DNA of 64,000 bases from Clostridia bacterium (GTDB lineage: Bacteria > Bacillota > Clostridia > Christensenellales > Aristaeellaceae), in assembly GCA_017541205.1 (NCBI GenBank), contig JAFXZO010000082.1:3248-67247 (forward strand), given 5' to 3'. The translations under genes and the position numbers were made by a program. Within the stretch, counting starts at the first letter, position 1. Every line of letters begins with the position of its first letter. This document shows, in pieces, positions 4,729 to 64,000 of this stretch. Under the pieces are notes generated by a model. The model was not told where the DNA came from, did no database searches, and saw only the letters and a list, made by a program, of their open reading frames with translations.

Positions 4729-5567
4729 TCGTCATTCCCTCCCAAGTAGGCGTCGATGACCGCCTGGTTATTCTGGATCTCCTCCGGGGTGCCCTCGGCG
4801 ATCAGCTTGCCGAACTCGATCACATAGATGCGGTCGGAAATGCCCATGACCAGGTCCATATGATGCTCGATCACGAACACGGTCAGGTTGAAATCCCGCT
4901 TGATCTGCTGGATGAACGCGCCCAGATCGAGCGTTTCCTGGGGGTTCATGCCGGCCGCGGGCTCGTCCAGGAGCAGCAGGCTCGGCTCCGTGGCCAGCGC
5001 GCGTGCGATTTCGAGCCGGCGCTGCTTGCCGTAGGGGAGCGAGGTGGCCTTCTCGTCGGCTACGTCCTCCAGGCCAACGATGCGCAGCAGGTCCATGGCC
5101 TTTTCCCGATTGCGCTTTTCTTCTTTGTAGTTGAGGCCGAAGGCCGCCGTAAAGATGTTGCTGGTGCGGCGCATATGGGTGGCGATCAGGACGTTTTCAA
5201 ACGCGGTCTGGCTCTTAAAGAGGCGGATATTCTGGAAGGTGCGGGCAATGCCCAGCTTTGTGATCCTGTCCGCGGTCATGGAGGTCTGCATGTTCAGGAA
5301 TTTTTCCGGATCGCTGCCCGCGTACATGCGCTTCATTTTGCCGCGGGGGTGATTGGCGGCGATGGGCTTGCCGTGGAAATAGACCGCGCCGTTGGTAGGC
5401 TCATACACGCCGGTGACGCAGTTGAAGGCCGTGGTCTTGCCCGCGCCGTTGGGTCCGATCAGGGCCACGATCTCGCCCTCGTCAATGCGCATGGACAGAT
5501 CGTTGATGGCCACCACGCCGCCAAACTGCATGGTGATGTTTTCCAGGCGCAATACGTTTTCGCTCAT
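4725..5567 (-). CDS. livG: Branched-chain amino acid ABC transporter ATP-binding protein LivG
   Basis: The start was moved to MSENVLRLENITMQFGG (ATG at 5567, ATGA overlap with the livM stop). Walker A GPNGAGKTT. LivG-type insertion and signature are present. Confidence 0.9.
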   Translation of the reverse strand: MSENVLRLENITMQFGGVVAINDLSMRIDEGEIVALIGPNGAGKTTAFNCVTGVYEPTNGAVYFHGKPIAANHPRGKMKRMYAGSDPEKFLNMQTSMTADRITKLGIARTFQNIRLFKSQTAFENVLIATHMRRTSNIFTAAFGLNYKEEKRNREKAMDLLRIVGLEDVADEKATSLPYGKQRRLEIARALATEPSLLLLDEPAAGMNPQETLDLGAFIQQIKRDFNLTVFVIEHHMDLVMGISDRIYVIEFGKLIAEGTPEEIQNNQAVIDAYLGGNDE

Positions 5568-6646
5568 TGCTTTGCCCTCCCCGCTTTTTTTCTGCCGGGC
5601 AGGCGCAGGTTCCATAGCTCCCTGTCGCCCATGATGCCCCGGCGGAAGAAGAGGACCACCACCATGATGACCGCGGAGAACGCGACCATGCGGAAGCCCG
5701 AACGCAGCAGGGGCACCTGGAAGGAGCCGATGAACTGCTCGTTATCCAGGAACCGAAGCCACCATTCGCTGCACGCGATATACAGATAAGAGGCGATCAC
5801 GCTGCCGCTGATGGAGCCCATGCCGCCGATGACCACCATGAGCAGGATATCGTACGTCATGGCGGACTTAAAGGAATTCGCCTGCACCGTGCCCTGGAAC
5901 ATGGCCAGCAGCGCGCCGCCGATGCCCGCGAAGAAGCAGCTGATAACGAAGGCGAGCTCCTTGTGCTTGAACAGGTTGATGCCCATGGCCTCGGCCGCCA
6001 CCTCATCGTCCCGGATGGCCTTGAAGGCGCGGCCATAGGTGGAATTGATGATGAGCAGGATCAGCCCGATACAGACCCCGGCGACGATCATGGGGAAGAG
6101 CACGGTGGTGCCCAATATCTTGGTGCTGGCAAAGGTCGGGTAGGTCTTGAGCAGATTGGAGCCGTTGGTGATCGGGCCCAGGCTGTCCCACTGCACCACG
6201 GCGCGGATGATTTCCGCGAAGCCCAGCGTGGCGATGGCCAGATAATCGCTCTTTAAGCGCAGCACCGGCAGGCCCACCAGCGCGGCCAGGAGCGCCGCCA
6301 CCACGCCGGCGAGGATCAGCGCCACCAGCAGCGGCAATTCAAACTGGATGATGCCGCCGTTGTAATACTGGTATACCGCGGCGTGGCGTTTGAGCGGGAT
6401 GGTGAACACCGCGTATACATACGCGCCCACCAGCATAAACCCGGCCTGGCCCAGGGAAAACAGGCCGGTAAAGCCGTTGAGCAGGTTCATGGATACGGCG
6501 ATCAGGGCGTATACCGCGCCTTTTTTGAGCACCGTGATGAGCATGGAGTTGGTGCCGAGCGCTGTCTCGGCCCACCAGGCGGCCGCGTACAGCAGCGCCA
6601 CCACGGCAAGGGATACGATCAGGCGAGTTGCCGACATTTTTTTCAT
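5564..6646 (-). CDS. livM: Branched-chain amino acid ABC transporter permease LivM
   Basis: Multi-pass membrane protein. The start was placed at ATG 6646 (MKKMSATRL) because GAGGTG lies 6 nt upstream. The ORF track begins at a GTG at 6655. Confidence 0.85.
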   Translation of the reverse strand: MKKMSATRLIVSLAVVALLYAAAWWAETALGTNSMLITVLKKGAVYALIAVSMNLLNGFTGLFSLGQAGFMLVGAYVYAVFTIPLKRHAAVYQYYNGGIIQFELPLLVALILAGVVAALLAALVGLPVLRLKSDYLAIATLGFAEIIRAVVQWDSLGPITNGSNLLKTYPTFASTKILGTTVLFPMIVAGVCIGLILLIINSTYGRAFKAIRDDEVAAEAMGINLFKHKELAFVISCFFAGIGGALLAMFQGTVQANSFKSAMTYDILLMVVIGGMGSISGSVIASYLYIACSEWWLRFLDNEQFIGSFQVPLLRSGFRMVAFSAVIMVVVLFFRRGIMGDRELWNLRLPGRKKAGRAKQ

Positions 6647-12466: not shown

Positions 12467-13174
12467 TCACCGCAGCAGCGTATAGCGGCCCTCCCGGAGC
12501 ACGCGCAGCAATTCCCCGTTGTCCCGGACGCGTTCATCCGTCAGGATGCCGCCGCACGCGGGATCGTCGGAGCGGTGATAATCGCTGCCGCTGGTTTTGA
12601 TTTTGCGCTTCATTTCCGCCCAGGCGTTTGCAAGATCGTTGTGCGAATCGTGGCGGAGATTGCCGTTGAAAACCTCGTATCCGTCAAAATACCGCGGGTC
12701 CTGCATGACCGTATCGCAGCGGAAGGGATGGGCGTGCACGAGGAGAAGGCCCGCCGCGCGCACGGACTGGCTCAGCGCTTCCAGGCTCATGCGCCGTACG
12801 TCTCCGGTCTCAAAAAGCCATTTTTCCGTTACGCCGTACACCAGATAATCGTTGGGATAATAGTGCATCCAGCCCCGGGAAAGGTATTCCCCGGGCAGCG
12901 GCTCAACGGGCGAAAGGTTGATCTCGCACCCCAGCAGCACGTCCAGATCCCGCCCGGCGGCGGTTTTGAGCGCTTCGTAGCCCCGGATAAAACGCTCCGC
13001 TTTCTTCTCCCACGGCGCGTCCTCCATGCCGCCGTATGTGCCGCGGTTGATATGGTTGGTGGATACGACCCCGCTGTATCCCGCCGCGCGGTAAGCGTCG
13101 ACCAATTCCCGGGCCGAGGCGGTCGCGCAGGCGCTGACCTCCCGGTTATGGCAGTGAAGCTCCAGCTTGTACAT
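12467..13174 (-). CDS. PHP-domain metal-dependent phosphoesterase
   Basis: The start was moved to MYKLELHCHN (ATG 13174, GAAGGAG 6 nt upstream). HxH motif at the N-terminus and further His/Asp ligand positions. Confidence 0.7.
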   Translation of the reverse strand: MYKLELHCHNREVSACATASARELVDAYRAAGYSGVVSTNHINRGTYGGMEDAPWEKKAERFIRGYEALKTAAGRDLDVLLGCEINLSPVEPLPGEYLSRGWMHYYPNDYLVYGVTEKWLFETGDVRRMSLEALSQSVRAAGLLLVHAHPFRCDTVMQDPRYFDGYEVFNGNLRHDSHNDLANAWAEMKRKIKTSGSDYHRSDDPACGGILTDERVRDNGELLRVLREGRYTLLR

Positions 13175-59111: not shown

Positions 59112-60538
59112 TCGTTCTTTGGATCGTTCTGGGCATAATTGTTGCGCTGCTTTTGATCGCCCTGGTCCGCGCACTGCTGGCGCCGAAGAAAACGGCGTCG
59201 TATCAGGCGCCGAAAGCGGATCAGCGGGCGGAGGAATACGCGCGGAAGCTCAGCCGCATGGTGGCCTTTGACACGGTGAGCGTGCCGGAAACCAACCAGC
59301 GGGAAAAATTCCTGCCCTTCCATGCATTGCTGGCAGAGCTGTTTCCCTTGGTGCATGAGAAGCTGGAAAAAACGGAAATCGACGGCAATCTGCTGTTTCA
59401 TTGGAAAGGCAAACGGGCCGACCGGCCTCTGGTGCTCATGAGCCATCAGGACGTGGTGCCCGCCGAGGGCGAATGGCTGCACGGCCCGTTTTCGGGAGAC
59501 ATCGCCGATGGGAAGGTCTGGGGCCGCGGCGCGTCCGACACCAAATGCAGCGTGATGGCCTTCTTCCAGGCCGCGGAGGAATTGCTGAAGGAAGGGTATA
59601 TCCCCGAAAACGACGTGTATCTTTCCTCCTCCTGCACGGAGGAATGGGCCGGCGACGGCTGCCCCAAGCTGGTGGAATACCTGGAAAAGCAGGGCGTCCG
59701 CCCCTTCCTGGTGTGCGACGAGGGCGGCGGGATCATCACGGACCCCGTGGGGGGCATCAAGGGCAATTTCGCCATGGTGGGCGTGTTTGAGAAAGGCAAG
59801 GCCGACGTACGCCTGACGGCCAAATCCACGGGCGGCCATGCCAGCGCCCCGGGGAAGCATACGCCGGTGGCCAGGCTATCGGATTTCGTGGGCGAGTTTG
59901 AGCATCATTCGCCCTTCAAGCGCAAAATGTCCCGGGAAGTGCAAGCGCTCTTCGAGCAGCTGGCCCCCTACGCGCCGTTTTACATGAAGCTGCTGTTTTG
60001 CAACATGTGGCTTTTCCGCCCGCTGCTGATCCGCGCCCTGCCCATGATCAGCGCCCAGGCGGGGGCCATGCTGCAAACCACCATCGCATTCACCATGCTT
60101 AAGGGCTCGGACGCCTACAACGTGCTGCCCCAGGAGGCGGTGCTGGGGGCCAACATGCGCTTCATCCCCCACCAGGGCATGGAGCAAAGCCTCGAAATCC
60201 TCCGGCGGATCGCGAAAAAGCATCAGATCGACGCGGAGGTGTTCCACGCCGTGGACGCCTCCCGCAGCGTGGACATTCACGGGGAAGGCTTCTCCCTGGT
60301 GCAGCGCGTGATCGGCCAAACCTTCGCCGGCCTGGAAACCTGCCCCTACGTGATGACCGGCGCAACGGACGCCCGGAATTACGAGCGCATCGCGGAGCAC
60401 GTCGTCCGCTTCGCCCCCGTGATCTACGGCCCGGAGCAAATGAAGGGCATGCACGGCCTGAACGAAAACATCGAATATAACTGCCTCCCCGGCGCGGTGG
60501 ACTTTTATAAGCATCTGATTGCTGCAAATAATGGATGA
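59108..60538 (+). CDS. Membrane-anchored M20-family metallopeptidase/carboxypeptidase
   Basis: GTG start with AAGGAG RBS and an N-terminal TM helix. ..LMSHQDVVP.., ..GRGASDTKC.. and ..CDEGG.. M20 metal-ligand motifs. Confidence 0.85.
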   Translation: MIVLWIVLGIIVALLLIALVRALLAPKKTASYQAPKADQRAEEYARKLSRMVAFDTVSVPETNQREKFLPFHALLAELFPLVHEKLEKTEIDGNLLFHWKGKRADRPLVLMSHQDVVPAEGEWLHGPFSGDIADGKVWGRGASDTKCSVMAFFQAAEELLKEGYIPENDVYLSSSCTEEWAGDGCPKLVEYLEKQGVRPFLVCDEGGGIITDPVGGIKGNFAMVGVFEKGKADVRLTAKSTGGHASAPGKHTPVARLSDFVGEFEHHSPFKRKMSREVQALFEQLAPYAPFYMKLLFCNMWLFRPLLIRALPMISAQAGAMLQTTIAFTMLKGSDAYNVLPQEAVLGANMRFIPHQGMEQSLEILRRIAKKHQIDAEVFHAVDASRSVDIHGEGFSLVQRVIGQTFAGLETCPYVMTGATDARNYERIAEHVVRFAPVIYGPEQMKGMHGLNENIEYNCLPGAVDFYKHLIAANNG

Positions 60539-60620
60539 GGGTTCCGCCACACGATTCGCAATGATATTCAGGTGATGGAGCTGAAAAAGTTGGTGTTTCA
60601 CCAGTCGGATTTTCTAAACT

Positions 60621-61043
60621 TCACTTTTTCATAGTTGCTGTAAAAATATGAATCCCAGAACAGCCATAGGACAGTACCAACTCACCTCTGTCCGCTTCCA
60701 CCCAGAACAGGTATCGGTTCATGGTTTTCGCCAGGTCTTCAAGCTCTGTGCCGAGGGCTTGGAGATCCCGGATCTGCTGAGTGGTCTTTCCGTATCGAGA
60801 GCGGGCTTCCAGCATCGTATAGACGTTTGCGGCCTTCAGCACAGCGCCCGCCATCTCCTTCACCAGCTGAAAACCGCCGTCCGTGTCCTCGAAGAAGAAT
60901 CGCTCCGTGTCCTGGCTGTCCGCGCCGTTTACCATCTGCCGGACAACCTGCGCCTGGATGTTGCCGAACAAGGCGTCCGTCGCAGTCCGCACAGCGAGTC
61001 CGCTGTCGTCCATGTAGCCGTATGAACGAGGCAAATGCGTCAT
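60621..61043 (-). CDS. Hypothetical protein (start uncertain)
   Basis: Open frame in the AT-richer region. No convincing RBS at any of the candidate ATGs and no family recognised. Confidence 0.3.
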   Translation of the reverse strand: MTHLPRSYGYMDDSGLAVRTATDALFGNIQAQVVRQMVNGADSQDTERFFFEDTDGGFQLVKEMAGAVLKAANVYTMLEARSRYGKTTQQIRDLQALGTELEDLAKTMNRYLFWVEADRGELVLSYGCSGIHIFTATMKK

Positions 61044-61113
61044 CGGATGCGCAGAATAGCAAAAGTGTATATTTATTCGCCGTCTATACAACTTTATGTT
61101 ATTTGTAGCTAAC

Positions 61114-61233
61114 TTAGCTGCGGGCATAGACGTAGCCAAACCGCGTCCTGCCCTTCTCCGTTCTGCCGATCACATACCGGCCTTCGTATCGCCCGTCCCG
61201 TCGCTTATAGATGTTTTCTCCTCGCTTCGCCAT
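61114..61233 (-). pseudogene. Remnant of a tyrosine-recombinase (phage-type integrase) N-terminal arm/AP2-like DNA-binding domain (39 codons)
   Basis: A GGGAGG RBS precedes MAKRGENIYKRRDGRYEGRYVIGRTEKGRTRFGYVYARS, followed by TAA. The ..IYKR.DGR.E.RY..G...GK..Y.Y.. pattern is the usual integrase N-terminus. No catalytic domain follows. Confidence 0.55.
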
Positions 61234-61370
61234 GGTTATATCCTCCCTAACTTTTTGACGGCTCATCTGACGGCTCATACGTGCCGCTGCCTGTACGAAA
61301 ATTGTAGAGGGTCAGGGCGAAAAAAGTAAATGACTGTAGGAAAATAAAGGGAATGGAATGGTGGTTTTCG

Positions 61371-61399
61371 TTGACAAGAACCTATATATATGATAAAAT
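61371..61399 (+). promoter_or_regulatory. Near-consensus extended -10 sigma-A promoter upstream of the NusG-paralog gene
   Basis: TTGACA (61371-61376), 17 nt ending in TGa, TAAAAT (61394-61399). Confidence 0.55.
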
Positions 61400-61630
61400 A
61401 CGCCCGTATATCCGACAGGATGTACAATGTTTGGGTGTCCCGAATTCCTATGTTCTTCGCAATCTTTCGGTTATTGCGAAGGGACAGCGAGAGGGTGACA
61501 GCCTTGGCAGAGCGTAAGGGGGCTCCGGCCGGGAATGGGCATACAGGATCGCCGCCGCGGGCAATGAACGGCAGAGACGCTTCGGCGTCGACGTGTGTTG
61601 CGGTGCGGCAGTGGATCAACAGCTGCAAAT

Positions 61631-61674
61631 AAACAGGGGACGCGCGCGGCGATGCCGGCAGCGTCCTGTTTGTG
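61631..61674 (+). terminator. Terminator-like hairpin in the leader upstream of the NusG-paralog gene
   Basis: AAACAGG[GG]ACGC (61631-61643) pairs with GCGTCCTGTTT (61661-61671), followed by GTG. The U tract is partly inside the stem. Confidence 0.35.
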
Positions 61675-61824
61675 CTGGAATGCCCTGCTGTTTCCTTCTC
61701 TCTACAAAAGGCTTTTGGACCCGTTCATGCCATAGCATGGCGGACAGAAAGCCGGTCAAAAACGGTGTTCCGCCGCGCTGCGTGAAGCGCGGATGGCGAA
61801 GCCTTGCCATCGGGAGGAATCATC

Positions 61825-62349
61825 ATGGAGCCATACGTGCGGTGCGCGTTCTGCCTGACGGGCAACGAAAGAAGCGTAGCCCGGAAGATCGAGCAGAAGG
61901 GCCTGGGCCGCGTCCTGATCCCGCAAAAAGTCAAGCCCTTCCGGGTGAACGGCCAATGGATCGACAAAACCGAGCTGCTGATGCCGGGCTACCTGTTCGT
62001 GTTTTCGGACGAAGCGTACCCCTTCTGGACGCTGAAAAAGGTGGACGGCGTGATCCGTGTGCTGACATACGGGGAAAAAGACGAGGAAGGTTACCTGACC
62101 GGCAGCGATCTCGATTTTGCCGCCTGGCTGGAGAGGGAAAACGGCTTAATCGGCAAGCTGGACGCTATCCAAGAGGGTGATTTCGTCCGGATCACCGACG
62201 GCGCCCTGCAGGAAATGCAGGGGAAGGTCATCGCCATGAACCGCCACCGCCATACGGTGCAGGTTGAAGTCACGCTGTTCAACGCCAAACGCACGGTGTG
62301 GCTGGGGTATGAAGTGGTGGAGAAACGGGAAACGGAAAAAGCGGAATGA
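61825..62349 (+). CDS. NusG-family specialised paralog (LoaP/RfaH-like transcription antiterminator)
   Basis: Start at MEPYVRCAF (GGGAGG 7 nt upstream). NGN-like N-domain (..LMPGYLFVFSDE..VDGVIRVL..). C-terminal KOW (GDFVRITDGALQEMQGKVIAMN..VQVEVTLFN). Confidence 0.8.
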   Translation: MEPYVRCAFCLTGNERSVARKIEQKGLGRVLIPQKVKPFRVNGQWIDKTELLMPGYLFVFSDEAYPFWTLKKVDGVIRVLTYGEKDEEGYLTGSDLDFAAWLERENGLIGKLDAIQEGDFVRITDGALQEMQGKVIAMNRHRHTVQVEVTLFNAKRTVWLGYEVVEKRETEKAE

Positions 62350-62717
62350 TGGAAATAAATGTGATCTGTTGGAAGCGTTGCTTCATTGGCAACAAATTCT
62401 TCACTGTCGGAGCGCACAAAAATGACGCCTATTTAGCGGCCTAATGGGGGGATAAACTGTGCAGAATAAACAAAGGTTAGAATTACATCCTCCTGGCAGT
62501 CCGTTTCAGACAGGTTTTTCCTTGTTTTTGGCTCTTTTTTCAAGCCTCTCCCCGACCTCGAACAGGCTAACGATTCATAAGGTTTCATAGTTAGGAGCTT
62601 ATTGACCGAGTTCTCAACTCCCCATATTTTGCCGGTTACAAAGTTTGGAGCTATTCAGACAGCCGGAAGGCTGAAAACTGTAACCGCCGAGATAGTGATT
62701 AACTTGTTAGCGTACCC

Positions 62718-62975
62718 GATAAAGACAGTCAAATGGTAGTGAGAACCTTATTACCATAGTGGGTAGAGACAGTCAAAGGTGGTCAAAACCTTATTGCCAA
62801 AGCGGGTACTAACATTCAAAGGTGGTTAAAACCTTATTACCAATGTAGATAGCGACATTGATAGGTAGTGAGAACCTTATTACGGATGTCGGTAGAAACA
62901 GTTATAGGTGGTTAGAAACTTATTGGTGTAAGAGTTCAGACAGTCAGAGGTAGTGAGAAACTTGGTGCTGCTGGC
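62718..62975 (+). repeat. Six tandem 43-nt direct repeats in the non-coding leader
   Basis: Units at 62718-62761, 62762-62804, 62805-62847, 62848-62890, 62891-62933 and 62934-~62975, with a degenerate copy at ~62687-62717. Conserved blocks are GGTAGAGACAGTCAAAG and GTRGTNARAACCTTATTRCC. Confidence 0.85.
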
Positions 62976-63118
62976 TGTATGTTATAGATAAAGGTTTATT
63001 TATGTTGGTGAGCTTCCTCAAGTGTGCTTTGTCATTACTGGAAGCATGTGTGTTGTTGGTTCCGTGCCTCTACCCTGTGCTCTCCTTTCCAGGGACTGAG
63101 GTATTTTCAGATAGACTC

Positions 63119-63141
63119 GCTGGCGTCTGCCAGCTTTCTTT
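63119..63141 (+). terminator. Terminator-like hairpin 36 nt upstream of the aminotransferase start
   Basis: GCTGGC-gtct-GCCAGC (63119-63134) followed by TTTCTTT. Confidence 0.45.
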
Positions 63142-63176
63142 AGTTGACAGAAACGACAGGCAAGGATGGTTGATTG

Positions 63177-64000
63177 ATGAACAATTTTCTTTCTGATCCA
63201 CGATTTACCGGGATCGAACCTTTCAAGTCCAAAGTATGGCTTTCCTCTCCCACGATGCACGGTGACGAGCAGCGCTGGGTGGATGAGGCTATCCAAACAA
63301 ACTGGGTCTCTACCGTCGGAGAGAATGTCGACACCGTAGAAAAAGAGATGGCTGCCTATATCGGCAGCAAATGTGCCGTGGGTCTGTCCTGCGGCACGGC
63401 TGCGTTACACCTCGCCACCAAACTGGCCGGAGAAAAACTGTACGGTCAGGCGAGACCGAACCAAGGCACCTTGCAGGGTCACCGGGTTTTCTGTTCGGAT
63501 ATGACCTTCGACGCTTCCATCAACCCAGTTGCCTATGAAGATGGCGAGGCAGTTTTTATCGATACAGAACGCGACTCCTGGAACATGGACCCTGTTGCGC
63601 TGGAAAAGGCGTTTGAACTGTATCCCGACGTAAAACTCATTGTAATCGCCCATCTCTATGGCACTCCCGGTAAAATTGACGAGATTAGAGCCATCGCAGA
63701 TAAACACGGCGCCTTGATCGTTGAGGATGCCGCGGAGTCACTGGGCGCCACCTATAAAGGTGTTCAAACTGGCATTTTCGGGGATTACGGGGCTATTTCG
63801 TTTAACGGAAATAAGGTGATCACAGGCTCCGCAGGAGGGCTGTTCATCACCAATTCTCAGGAAGACGCAAACAAAGTCCGCAAGTGGTCCACCCAAAGCC
63901 GCGAAGCAGCCCCGTGGTATCAGCATGAGGAGATTGGCTACAACTATCGCATGAGCAATATTATCGCAGGTATTGTTCGTGGCCAAATCCCTTATTTGGA
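63177..64000 (+). CDS. DegT/DnrJ/EryC1/StrS-family sugar aminotransferase; 3' end lies beyond the window
   Basis: MNNFLSDPRF..LSSPTMHGDEQRWVDEAIQTNWVS..GTAALHLA..VEDAAESLGATYKG..ISFNGNKVITGSAGG (Schiff-base Lys region). Not in the ORF track because no stop is reached. Confidence 0.85.
   Translation, partial: MNNFLSDPRFTGIEPFKSKVWLSSPTMHGDEQRWVDEAIQTNWVSTVGENVDTVEKEMAAYIGSKCAVGLSCGTAALHLATKLAGEKLYGQARPNQGTLQGHRVFCSDMTFDASINPVAYEDGEAVFIDTERDSWNMDPVALEKAFELYPDVKLIVIAHLYGTPGKIDEIRAIADKHGALIVEDAAESLGATYKGVQTGIFGDYGAISFNGNKVITGSAGGLFITNSQEDANKVRKWSTQSREAAPWYQHEEIGYNYRMSNIIAGIVRGQIPYL

Follow-up and report, generated by a model that had tools for sequence, protein, structure and literature searches.

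Positions 61371-64000 of a 64,000-nucleotide (nt) stretch of DNA from an uncultured rumen Clostridia bacterium (the window; its letters were checked by reading 60800-64000) hold a gene for a diverged, LoaP-like paralog of NusG, together with its promoter, a structured leader and the first gene of a glycan locus. We put at roughly 60% the probability that this region is an operon-embedded antitermination unit of the LoaP type, which serves as the control region and first gene of that locus. Specialised NusG paralogs decide the full transcription of long and costly surface-glycan and antibiotic operons. To our knowledge, mechanistic understanding of them is limited to RfaH and, recently, one Bacillus LoaP. 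The initial annotation of this DNA had described a processive antitermination module heading a polysaccharide-type locus, and this general logic is plausible. Its parts list was largely right, with one omission: the sole cis element conserved family-wide, a structured RNA here called R1. Each of its eight parts lies at the coordinates given, although two of them are at chance level.

In the proposed unit, a strong promoter, a structured leader, R1, the paralog gene, a terminator checkpoint and the glycan genes would follow one another in this order. The single promoter at 61371-61399 would yield a structured leader of ~420 nt, the last 100 nt of which are R1. The paralog would bind R1, join the elongating RNA polymerase on its own transcript and confer resistance to intrinsic terminators, with the hairpin at 63119-63141 and possibly a leader hairpin at 61629-61674 as targets. 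Read-through into the glycan genes would take place only with the paralog present, from which we infer a positive feedback loop. The principal parts are the following:

61371-61399, + strand: sigma-A-type promoter with extended -10, TTGACA-17-TGaTAAAAT
61700-61824 (core 61704-61803), + strand: structured RNA R1, four helices and tail GGAUGGCGAAGCC, from covariation and a covariance model
61812-61817, + strand: Shine-Dalgarno sequence of the paralog, GGGAGG
61825-62349, + strand: LoaP-like NusG paralog of 174 amino acids (aa), NGN and KOW domains, from NCBIfam, Pfam and AlphaFold2
63119-63141, + strand: intrinsic-terminator-like hairpin GCUGGC-GUCU-GCCAGC (stem 63119-63134) followed by UUUCUUU
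63177-64000, + strand: 5' part of a DegT/LegC-type sugar aminotransferase gene (Pfam DegT_DnrJ_EryC1, E 3e-58)

The relatives compared are loci labelled L007-L033, whose paralogs are 40-92% identical to the window protein. Against NCBIfam models, the window protein scores 87.2 bits for LoaP (NF033641, cut-off 125), 40.3 for NusG (TIGR00922, cut-off 135.7), 36.4 for UpxY (NF033644, below its cut-off of 100), and 20.9 and 18.9 for RfaH (NF006534 and TIGR01955), and LoaP is the best family for 21 of the 21 aligned family members, the window protein included. The two-domain build given in the initial annotation is borne out: the Pfam NGN match reaches 27.8 bits (cut-off 22.2), the KOW matches are weak and below cut-off, and the AlphaFold2 model (pLDDT 78) has an NGN domain and a beta-barrel KOW domain with strands at 120-161. 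The nearest solved chain by sequence is 8f5g, described as a 'NusG-RNA complex', which is also among the top structural matches to the model. The window holds no second NusG. In the relative L021, however, a partial nusG at the contig end (1-1791; TIGR00922 162.6 bits) is followed by rplK and rplA, and this housekeeping cluster lies ~3-4 kb upstream of the paralog and its glycan locus; the window protein is 25% identical to a relative's true NusG. Since LoaP is the best family and a true nusG-rplK-rplA cluster stands beside the L021 paralog, the window protein is, by these profile comparisons, a specialised NusG paralog, LoaP-like but diverged. The placement proposed by the initial annotation thus stands, with LoaP as the closest family.

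Homologues of the paralog are confined to metagenome assemblies and metagenome-assembled genomes (MAGs), all from uncultured Clostridia and most of these from the rumen. When species-representative genomes were scanned with the single protein, no homologue was found; a profile scan of genomes gave matches limited to three rumen or uncultured Clostridia MAGs, and a metagenome scan gave four paralog loci. In all relatives with enough flanking DNA, the paralog heads or sits within a polysaccharide locus. This context agrees with the locus type that had been assigned to the window, which itself shows only the first gene, DegT. The best NCBIfam match of that gene is the LegC family; it runs off the window and encodes 431 aa on L001, L002 and L003, contigs from the same strain that carry an identical paralog. 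Genes downstream of the paralog in the relatives include DegT, glycosyltransferases, Wzy, flippase, Bac_transf, LytR-CpsA, Wzz, CpsD, CpsB and EpsG, arranged by paralog identity as follows:

L007, L008 (91%): paralog, DegT, glycosyltransferase, Wzy, flippase, Bac_transf, GT2, ATP-grasp
L010 (86%): paralog, alanine dehydrogenase, DegT fragment, DegT, Bac_transf and more
L020, L021, L023, L025, L026, L028 (55-77%): EpsG, LytR-CpsA, Wzy, Polysacc_synt and similar
L030, L033 (40-44%): classic LytR-Wzz-CpsD-CpsB-Bac_transf loci

In L020, L026 and L028, the gene after the paralog begins just 26-81 nt behind it with no terminator in between, so that co-transcription is likely in these three loci. Along 60000-64000 of the window, the upstream housekeeping genes have a GC content of ~0.64, the DegT gene one of 0.50-0.55 and the spacer between paralog and DegT one of 0.39-0.45, a fall that is consistent with a horizontally exchanged glycan locus.

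R1 is ~100 nt long and ends 21 nt before the paralog ATG and 8 nt before its Shine-Dalgarno sequence. In an alignment of upstream regions, family-wide conservation is restricted to the last ~125 nt before the paralog. The R1 alignment (12 sequences) has four helices, in which 11 of the 23 pairs show compensatory changes, and several highly conserved unpaired stretches within this multi-helix architecture. Pairing is kept in 91.3% of cells versus 80.9% in shuffles, none of 500 reaching the real value, and it falls to 30-44% once the pairing partners are shifted along; for covariation, the score of 0.355 compares with 0.171 in the control. The covariance model finds exactly one copy per locus, each abutting the paralog start, and recovers sequences outside its training set (L028 at 65 bits, the truncated L025 at 28, L024 at 16.7), and the 3' half of R1 is found even before paralogs of 40% identity (L033, E 6e-5; L030 and L032, E 3e-4). 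Searched with the same model, the window holds no second copy, the spacer included. A pattern search of genomes with the main R1 hairpin returned two already-known genomes and otherwise partial chance matches, and therefore gives no evidence of further R1 copies at other operons. In L013, R1 begins 18 nt past the stop codon of a capD-type gene, and R1 and the paralog lie in the same-strand gene run, which argues that R1 functions within a transcript rather than as promoter DNA. Because R1 is linked one-to-one to the gene across the family and a related tail follows phage LoaP genes (described below), R1 is most likely, on these comparative grounds, the RNA for recruiting or controlling the paralog.

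The promoter at 61371-61399, called near-consensus in the initial annotation, indeed carries 11 of the 12 consensus bases plus the TG of the extended -10, and is the sole match of such quality in the region. The same site is the sole 11/12+TG match in L007 and L010. Similarity between the loci begins at the -35 hexamer and, in close relatives, reaches the ATG; DNA upstream of the hexamer is unrelated. At the other end of the unit, the hairpin at 63119-63134 is a clean 6-bp GC stem (-11.6 kcal/mol) and stands, with its T-run, 36 nt before the DegT gene. This element, too, holds up against comparison: of its two copies in L010, copy a shows the compensatory form GCUGGU/ACCAGU, and copy b keeps the stem and has lost the T-run. 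Terminator-like hairpins of unrelated sequence recur between the paralog and the next gene in eight of eleven loci (the window, L007, L010, L021, L023, L024, L025 and L029), and none is present where this gap is shorter than 100 nt.

Several points weigh against an antitermination unit. The paralog falls short of the LoaP cut-off (87.2 vs 125 bits), even if LoaP remains the best family by a wide margin, and the antitermination role of the clade is predicted from sequence alone. A terminator behind the paralog is equally expected of a stand-alone gene. A riboswitch or a translational operator could equally be expected at the position of R1 beside the Shine-Dalgarno sequence. Loading that depends on R1 could not suppress the leader hairpin at 61629-61674, which precedes R1, and the UNCG-type leader hairpins of the window are conserved neither in L007 nor in L010. 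Operon bodies in the relatives are not enriched in terminators (15 vs 12+-4 in L007; 18 vs 13+-3.5 in L010), and the module's non-coding parts hold two + strand terminator-like hairpins; the earlier description of the long leader as 'terminator-studded' was thus overstated. Finally, the three independent assemblies L001, L002 and L003 end 9-211 nt past the DegT stop codon (positions 12657-12859), and the operon beyond is unread. That all three end there suggests a repeated or strain-variable region directly behind the DegT gene.

The strongest competing explanation concerns the 827-nt spacer between the paralog and DegT. It holds that the features of this spacer (the weak hairpin, the promoter-like site and the repeat array) are non-regulatory by-products of recombination and replication slippage, in a glycan locus that changes fast. 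The features in question are:

62346-62444, + strand: 32-codon open reading frame (ORF), a pseudogene remnant overlapping the paralog stop codon
62480-62722, + strand: conserved non-coding block, ~90% identical in four copies (the window, L010 twice, L024)
62492-62530, + strand: weak hairpin in the block, -6.4 kcal/mol, z +0.6
62602-62630, + strand: promoter-like site TTGACC-17-TATTTT, 9/12 match
62623-62697, + strand: stem-loop in the block, -27.6 kcal/mol, z -4.4
62680-62980, + strand: 43-nt tandem array of ~7 units, C-poor, GC 0.39-0.43

The spacer opens with the pseudogene remnant, which from ~62383 matches the tails of truncated DegT-type genes (..FIGNKFFTVGAHKNDAYLAA in the window vs ..NKFFTVGAHKNDACLAA in L010 and L024). 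Such genes, of 228-232 aa, are intact in L010 (12486-13184) and L024 (2776-3462) where the window keeps the remnant; these copies share a foreign tail, ..NK(F/L)FTVGA(H/N)KNDACLAA*, and the same non-coding block follows each. The block always comes after a truncated DegT gene or its remnant, and in L010 the block and a 5' DegT gene fragment are tandemly duplicated. The repeat array is as real as the initial annotation had stated: Tandem Repeats Finder places it at 62723-62924 (4.7 copies, 77% match), and its core motif occurs six times against 0.02 expected. Its copy number ranges from 1 to 7 across the block copies, with 1, 4 and 5 units in the relatives, and no consensus fold was found within the 43-nt unit. 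L007, whose protein is 91% identical, has an unrelated spacer of 286 nt with a strong terminator only. The GC content of the spacer, against ~0.64 in the housekeeping genes, fits the same explanation.

On the other side, the non-repeat block keeps its ~90% identity even in L024, despite a strongly diverged paralog there, the core of the unit is strongly conserved across 17 units, and the terminal hairpin shows the compensatory change described above. We rate at clearly under even odds the view that nothing in the spacer is regulatory. That the spacer is in part recombination debris is a separate matter, and to judge from its sequence it is a mosaic of a pseudogene remnant, a conserved non-coding block, a variable-copy array and one terminator. 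It had been described as a long leader; the truncated aminotransferase tail, and a block found elsewhere behind such genes, do not bear out a single designed leader. The weak hairpin at 62492-62530 exists at its coordinates, yet folds no better than shuffled sequence. Each 43-nt unit contains an invariant TTATT, which resembles the TTNTTT motif of NusG-dependent pausing in B. subtilis.

A second alternative makes R1 an expression platform for the paralog, that is, either an operator by which the protein represses its own translation or a riboswitch with control over the Shine-Dalgarno sequence. The distance of 8 nt between the two is in line with such a platform, and in the window as in L007 and L010 the sequence GAUGGC...GCCAUC can form an alternative hairpin right beside GGGAGG. 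The conserved unpaired stretches and multi-helix architecture of R1 would suit it as well, and R1 always stands before a start codon, phage contigs included. In those contigs, however, the related RNA precedes a gene other than the LoaP-like one, which pure autoregulation fails to explain. Neither a terminator nor a clear sequestering helix is conserved family-wide, and the riboswitch families of Rfam gave no match to the R1 region. We consider this explanation rather improbable.

A third alternative divides the region into two transcription units: a stand-alone paralog gene, transcribed from the strong promoter up to a terminator behind it, and glycan genes with a promoter of their own (at 62602-62630 or elsewhere) on which the paralog acts in trans. 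Its target would be the 43-nt repeats or the stem-loop at 62623-62697, much as the LoaP of B. velezensis acts on dfn and mln. The -35 of the promoter-like site is kept in all four block copies, copy a of L010 matching at 10/12, and the block also occurs without a paralog directly before it, after an alanine dehydrogenase gene and truncated DegT genes (L010, L024). Terminators stand behind the paralog in most loci, and the phage RNA tail is downstream of the LoaP-like gene. The second promoter claimed for 62602-62630 dissolves on counting, however: the region has four 9/12 matches against 3.0 expected, which is chance level, the -10 is not conserved, and the -35 lies inside sequence that resembles a repeat unit. 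Moreover, R1 has no second copy in the spacer or in the rest of the window, and gaps of 26-81 nt in relatives leave no space for a separate promoter and leader. We hold two units to be unlikely on this balance. The -35 surroundings (GTTAGGAGCTTATTG) and the stretch TTCAGACAGCCGGA resemble parts of the 43-nt units (62590-62604 vs 62911-62925; 62654-62667 vs 62935-62948), and this -35 may be a degenerate repeat unit.

That the protein is the organism's housekeeping NusG, with which it shares the NGN and KOW domains, has next to no chance given its 40.3 bits against a cut-off of 135.7 and its neighbours (small acid-soluble spore protein, peptidase M20 and DegT genes, with no secE, rplK or rplA nearby), and this identity is ruled out for the family by L021, which carries both a true NusG and the paralog.

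The 5' leader and the DNA before it hold further features of narrower conservation:

61117-61278, - strand: 54-aa ORF diverging from the promoter, no Pfam match
61406-61425, + strand: stem-loop where the transcript is predicted to begin, GUAUAUCC-GACA-GGAUGUAC, present in the minimum-energy fold
61455-61481, + strand: 9-bp hairpin with UUCG in its loop, -12 kcal/mol, z -3.6
61576-61589, + strand: GACGC-UUCG-GCGUC hairpin with a canonical UNCG tetraloop, from sequence and fold
61629-61674, + strand: terminator-like hairpin with A-tract, GC-rich stem and interrupted U-tract UGUUUGUG

As a whole, the leader (61406-61830) folds much better than shuffles (z -5.0). The first stem-loop is maintained with changed pairs in L007, L010 and L014, and we infer that it is a 5' stabiliser. 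The 9-bp hairpin, listed in the initial annotation and confirmed here by its energy, is retained in L007 and L010 with wobble changes only, and its loop is not conserved. The UUCG hairpin has a perfect stem and lies 40 nt 5' of the terminator-like hairpin; it has a GUUG loop in L010 and is deleted in L007. The terminator-like hairpin, also on the earlier parts list (as 61631-61674), reaches -24.7 kcal/mol (z -2.4), with an inner stem flagged by the scan and an A-tract that pairs with the U-tract, and is conserved only in the close relatives L007 and L010. The dfn leader of B. velezensis has a hairpin-then-terminator order (PMC12691694), to which the order of 61576-61589 and 61629-61674 is alike; we treat this as a lead and no more.

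The sequence 5' of the promoter differs in every relative examined. In L010 (8638-9414, with equivalents in L011 and L012), a pair of a HigB-like toxin and a helix-turn-helix antitoxin lies directly 5' of the promoter. In the 44%-identity relatives L030 (4377-5489), L031 (1437-2549) and L032 (236-1348, - strand), a divergent tyrosine recombinase gene lies ~560 nt upstream of the paralog, and L030 has two serine recombinase genes farther upstream. These genes could indicate an invertible promoter or a mobile locus. L030 has a single weak inverted repeat (5325-5339 / 6095-6109), and no inverted repeats of an invertible promoter were found around the window promoter. The 54-aa ORF looked like the arm-binding N-terminus of an integrase, a candidate dropped on the Pfam result; a 12-nt unit, TGACGGCTCATC, is repeated 1.9 times at its start (61256-61278, - strand).

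R1 also bears a likeness to RAGATH-28 (RF03052), an orphan Rfam motif typed as sRNA. An Rfam scan of 60500-64000 at E <= 1 gave no match, nor did the spacer alone at E <= 10. With a short query, 61725-61802 matched RAGATH-28 over its full length at 21.0 bits (E 0.15), and full-length alignments at the equivalent position gave 22.9 bits in L029, 14.5 in L033 and 23.1 in L168, all of them below the gathering score of 45.3 bits; L030 gave no such match. Three divergent loci thus have the match in the same place, and a further one is on a phage contig beside a bona fide LoaP gene. Both RNAs consist of a hairpin, a linker and a hairpin, and end in an identical 3' tail, GGAUGGCGAAGC. R1 departs from RAGATH-28 in its linker and in an additional helix that encloses the rest, and its 14.5-23 bits compare with the 45.3 of the gathering score. 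No mention of RAGATH-28 was found in the literature searched.

The tail was followed into viral contigs. The strict RAGATH-28 consensus pattern had no match there, and an 18-nt tail pattern, CGGAKGGCGAAGCYRTGC, is present on 74 viral contigs. On 12 of the 74 (~5 sequence groups), a NusG/LoaP-like gene lies 85-420 nt 5' of the tail on the same strand, and one such gene exceeds the LoaP cut-off at 154.9 bits; as the contigs were chosen by the tail itself, the association rests on consistent adjacency and strand rather than on the raw count. R1 aligns full-length to several of the phage tail sites with weak scores, and all 12 phage loci stay below the gathering score of RAGATH-28. On the phage contigs, the related RNA precedes the start codon of a different gene, not that of the LoaP-like gene. 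Two lines were discarded. The pattern GCCGCG..CGCGGAKGGCGRAGC in genome contigs gave chance matches in GC-rich genomes, where the R1 model fitted only the part fixed by the pattern. The set L160-L239, intended as a control for the frequency of NusG-like genes, shares a 13-nt tail and is invalid as a control. Separately, twister-sister ribozymes above the Rfam gathering score occur at L297 547-641, L298 1595-1689, L304 7271-7365 and 8977-9092, and L317 5180-5274; these viral contigs also carry a NusG/LoaP-like gene, then the GGAGGGCGAAGCUAUGCC tail. Twister-sister ribozymes nearby fit the origin of the RAGATH name.

It is possible, and for now a tentative suggestion, that R1 belongs with the RAGATH-28-like RNAs in a single class of leader elements that respond to LoaP, with the 43-nt array as a second platform in the window. 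Under this suggestion, an RNA of ~100 nt with several helices and the ending GGAUGGCGAAGC(Y)AUGCC would be the general loading or control site of a large, uncharacterised branch of the LoaP type. The class would span glycan loci of gut and rumen Clostridia and their phages, and would be unlike the small UNCG hairpin of Bacillus. The C-poor array, variable in copy number, might then tune how much of the modified polymerase reaches the glycan genes.

Among known systems, LoaP is an RNA-binding factor whose ligand is a hairpin of the leader, and it opposes the action of NusA at intrinsic terminators (PMC12691694). The window paralog shares with it the best-scoring family, a two-domain NusG-like fold with a beta-barrel C-terminal domain, and a host in Bacillota; in both, the gene adjoins a long biosynthetic operon, and the polymerase meets a structured leader RNA and intrinsic terminators on its way. 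The differences lie in the RNA and in the target. LoaP is known to bind a small hairpin with a UNCG tetraloop, which belongs to the target leader and lies downstream of loaP, whereas the conserved RNA of the window is ~100 nt long, has four helices and lies directly upstream of the paralog gene, and UNCG hairpins are unconserved. The LoaP target is a polyketide locus, that of the window a glycan locus.

UpxY, which acts with UpxZ in Bacteroides capsule loci, is encoded at the head of the operon that it targets, and the leader on which it acts precedes the upxY gene itself (PMC7819879, PMC11685472). A paralog inside the leader of its own target had been presented as a departure from known systems, and it matches this UpxY arrangement instead (PMC7819879, PMC11685472). 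Both are encoded by the first gene of a polysaccharide operon, which the window paralog is presumed to control, and both have a cis requirement, a predicted one in the window, in the leader before their own gene. The window paralog differs in its 36.4 bits, in phylum (its hosts are Clostridia MAGs) and in having no inverted repeats flanking its promoter; an UpxZ-like second gene was not seen, the next gene being DegT or another biosynthetic gene. RfaH is likewise a specialised NusG paralog that enables full transcription of long glycan operons. It differs in that its models give ~20 bits, in that the C-terminal domain here is a beta-barrel and not alpha-helical (AlphaFold2), and in being encoded away from its targets. 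The RfaH ops pattern gave 60 matches against 68.6 expected, with a single chance-grade match in the leader. A further parallel is EAR, a structured RNA in the B. subtilis eps operon that promotes processive read-through of terminators and is reported to act without a dedicated NusG paralog. Both EAR and R1 are structured RNAs inside a Bacillota exopolysaccharide operon; Rfam families, EAR included, had no match in the module region besides the weak RAGATH-28 one.

The locus belongs to a LoaP-like clade that is known only from metagenomes, mostly of rumen and gut, and that has a conserved RNA partner. Should R1 turn out not to be the recognition element, the locus would be one more ordinary case of a regulatory layout already known. 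If it is, the LoaP family would gain a second RNA ligand, different in structure from the first. It would also provide a likely function for the orphan Rfam motif RAGATH-28, and a simple signature in the sequence by which glycan loci and phage operons under the control of such paralogs could be found in metagenomes.

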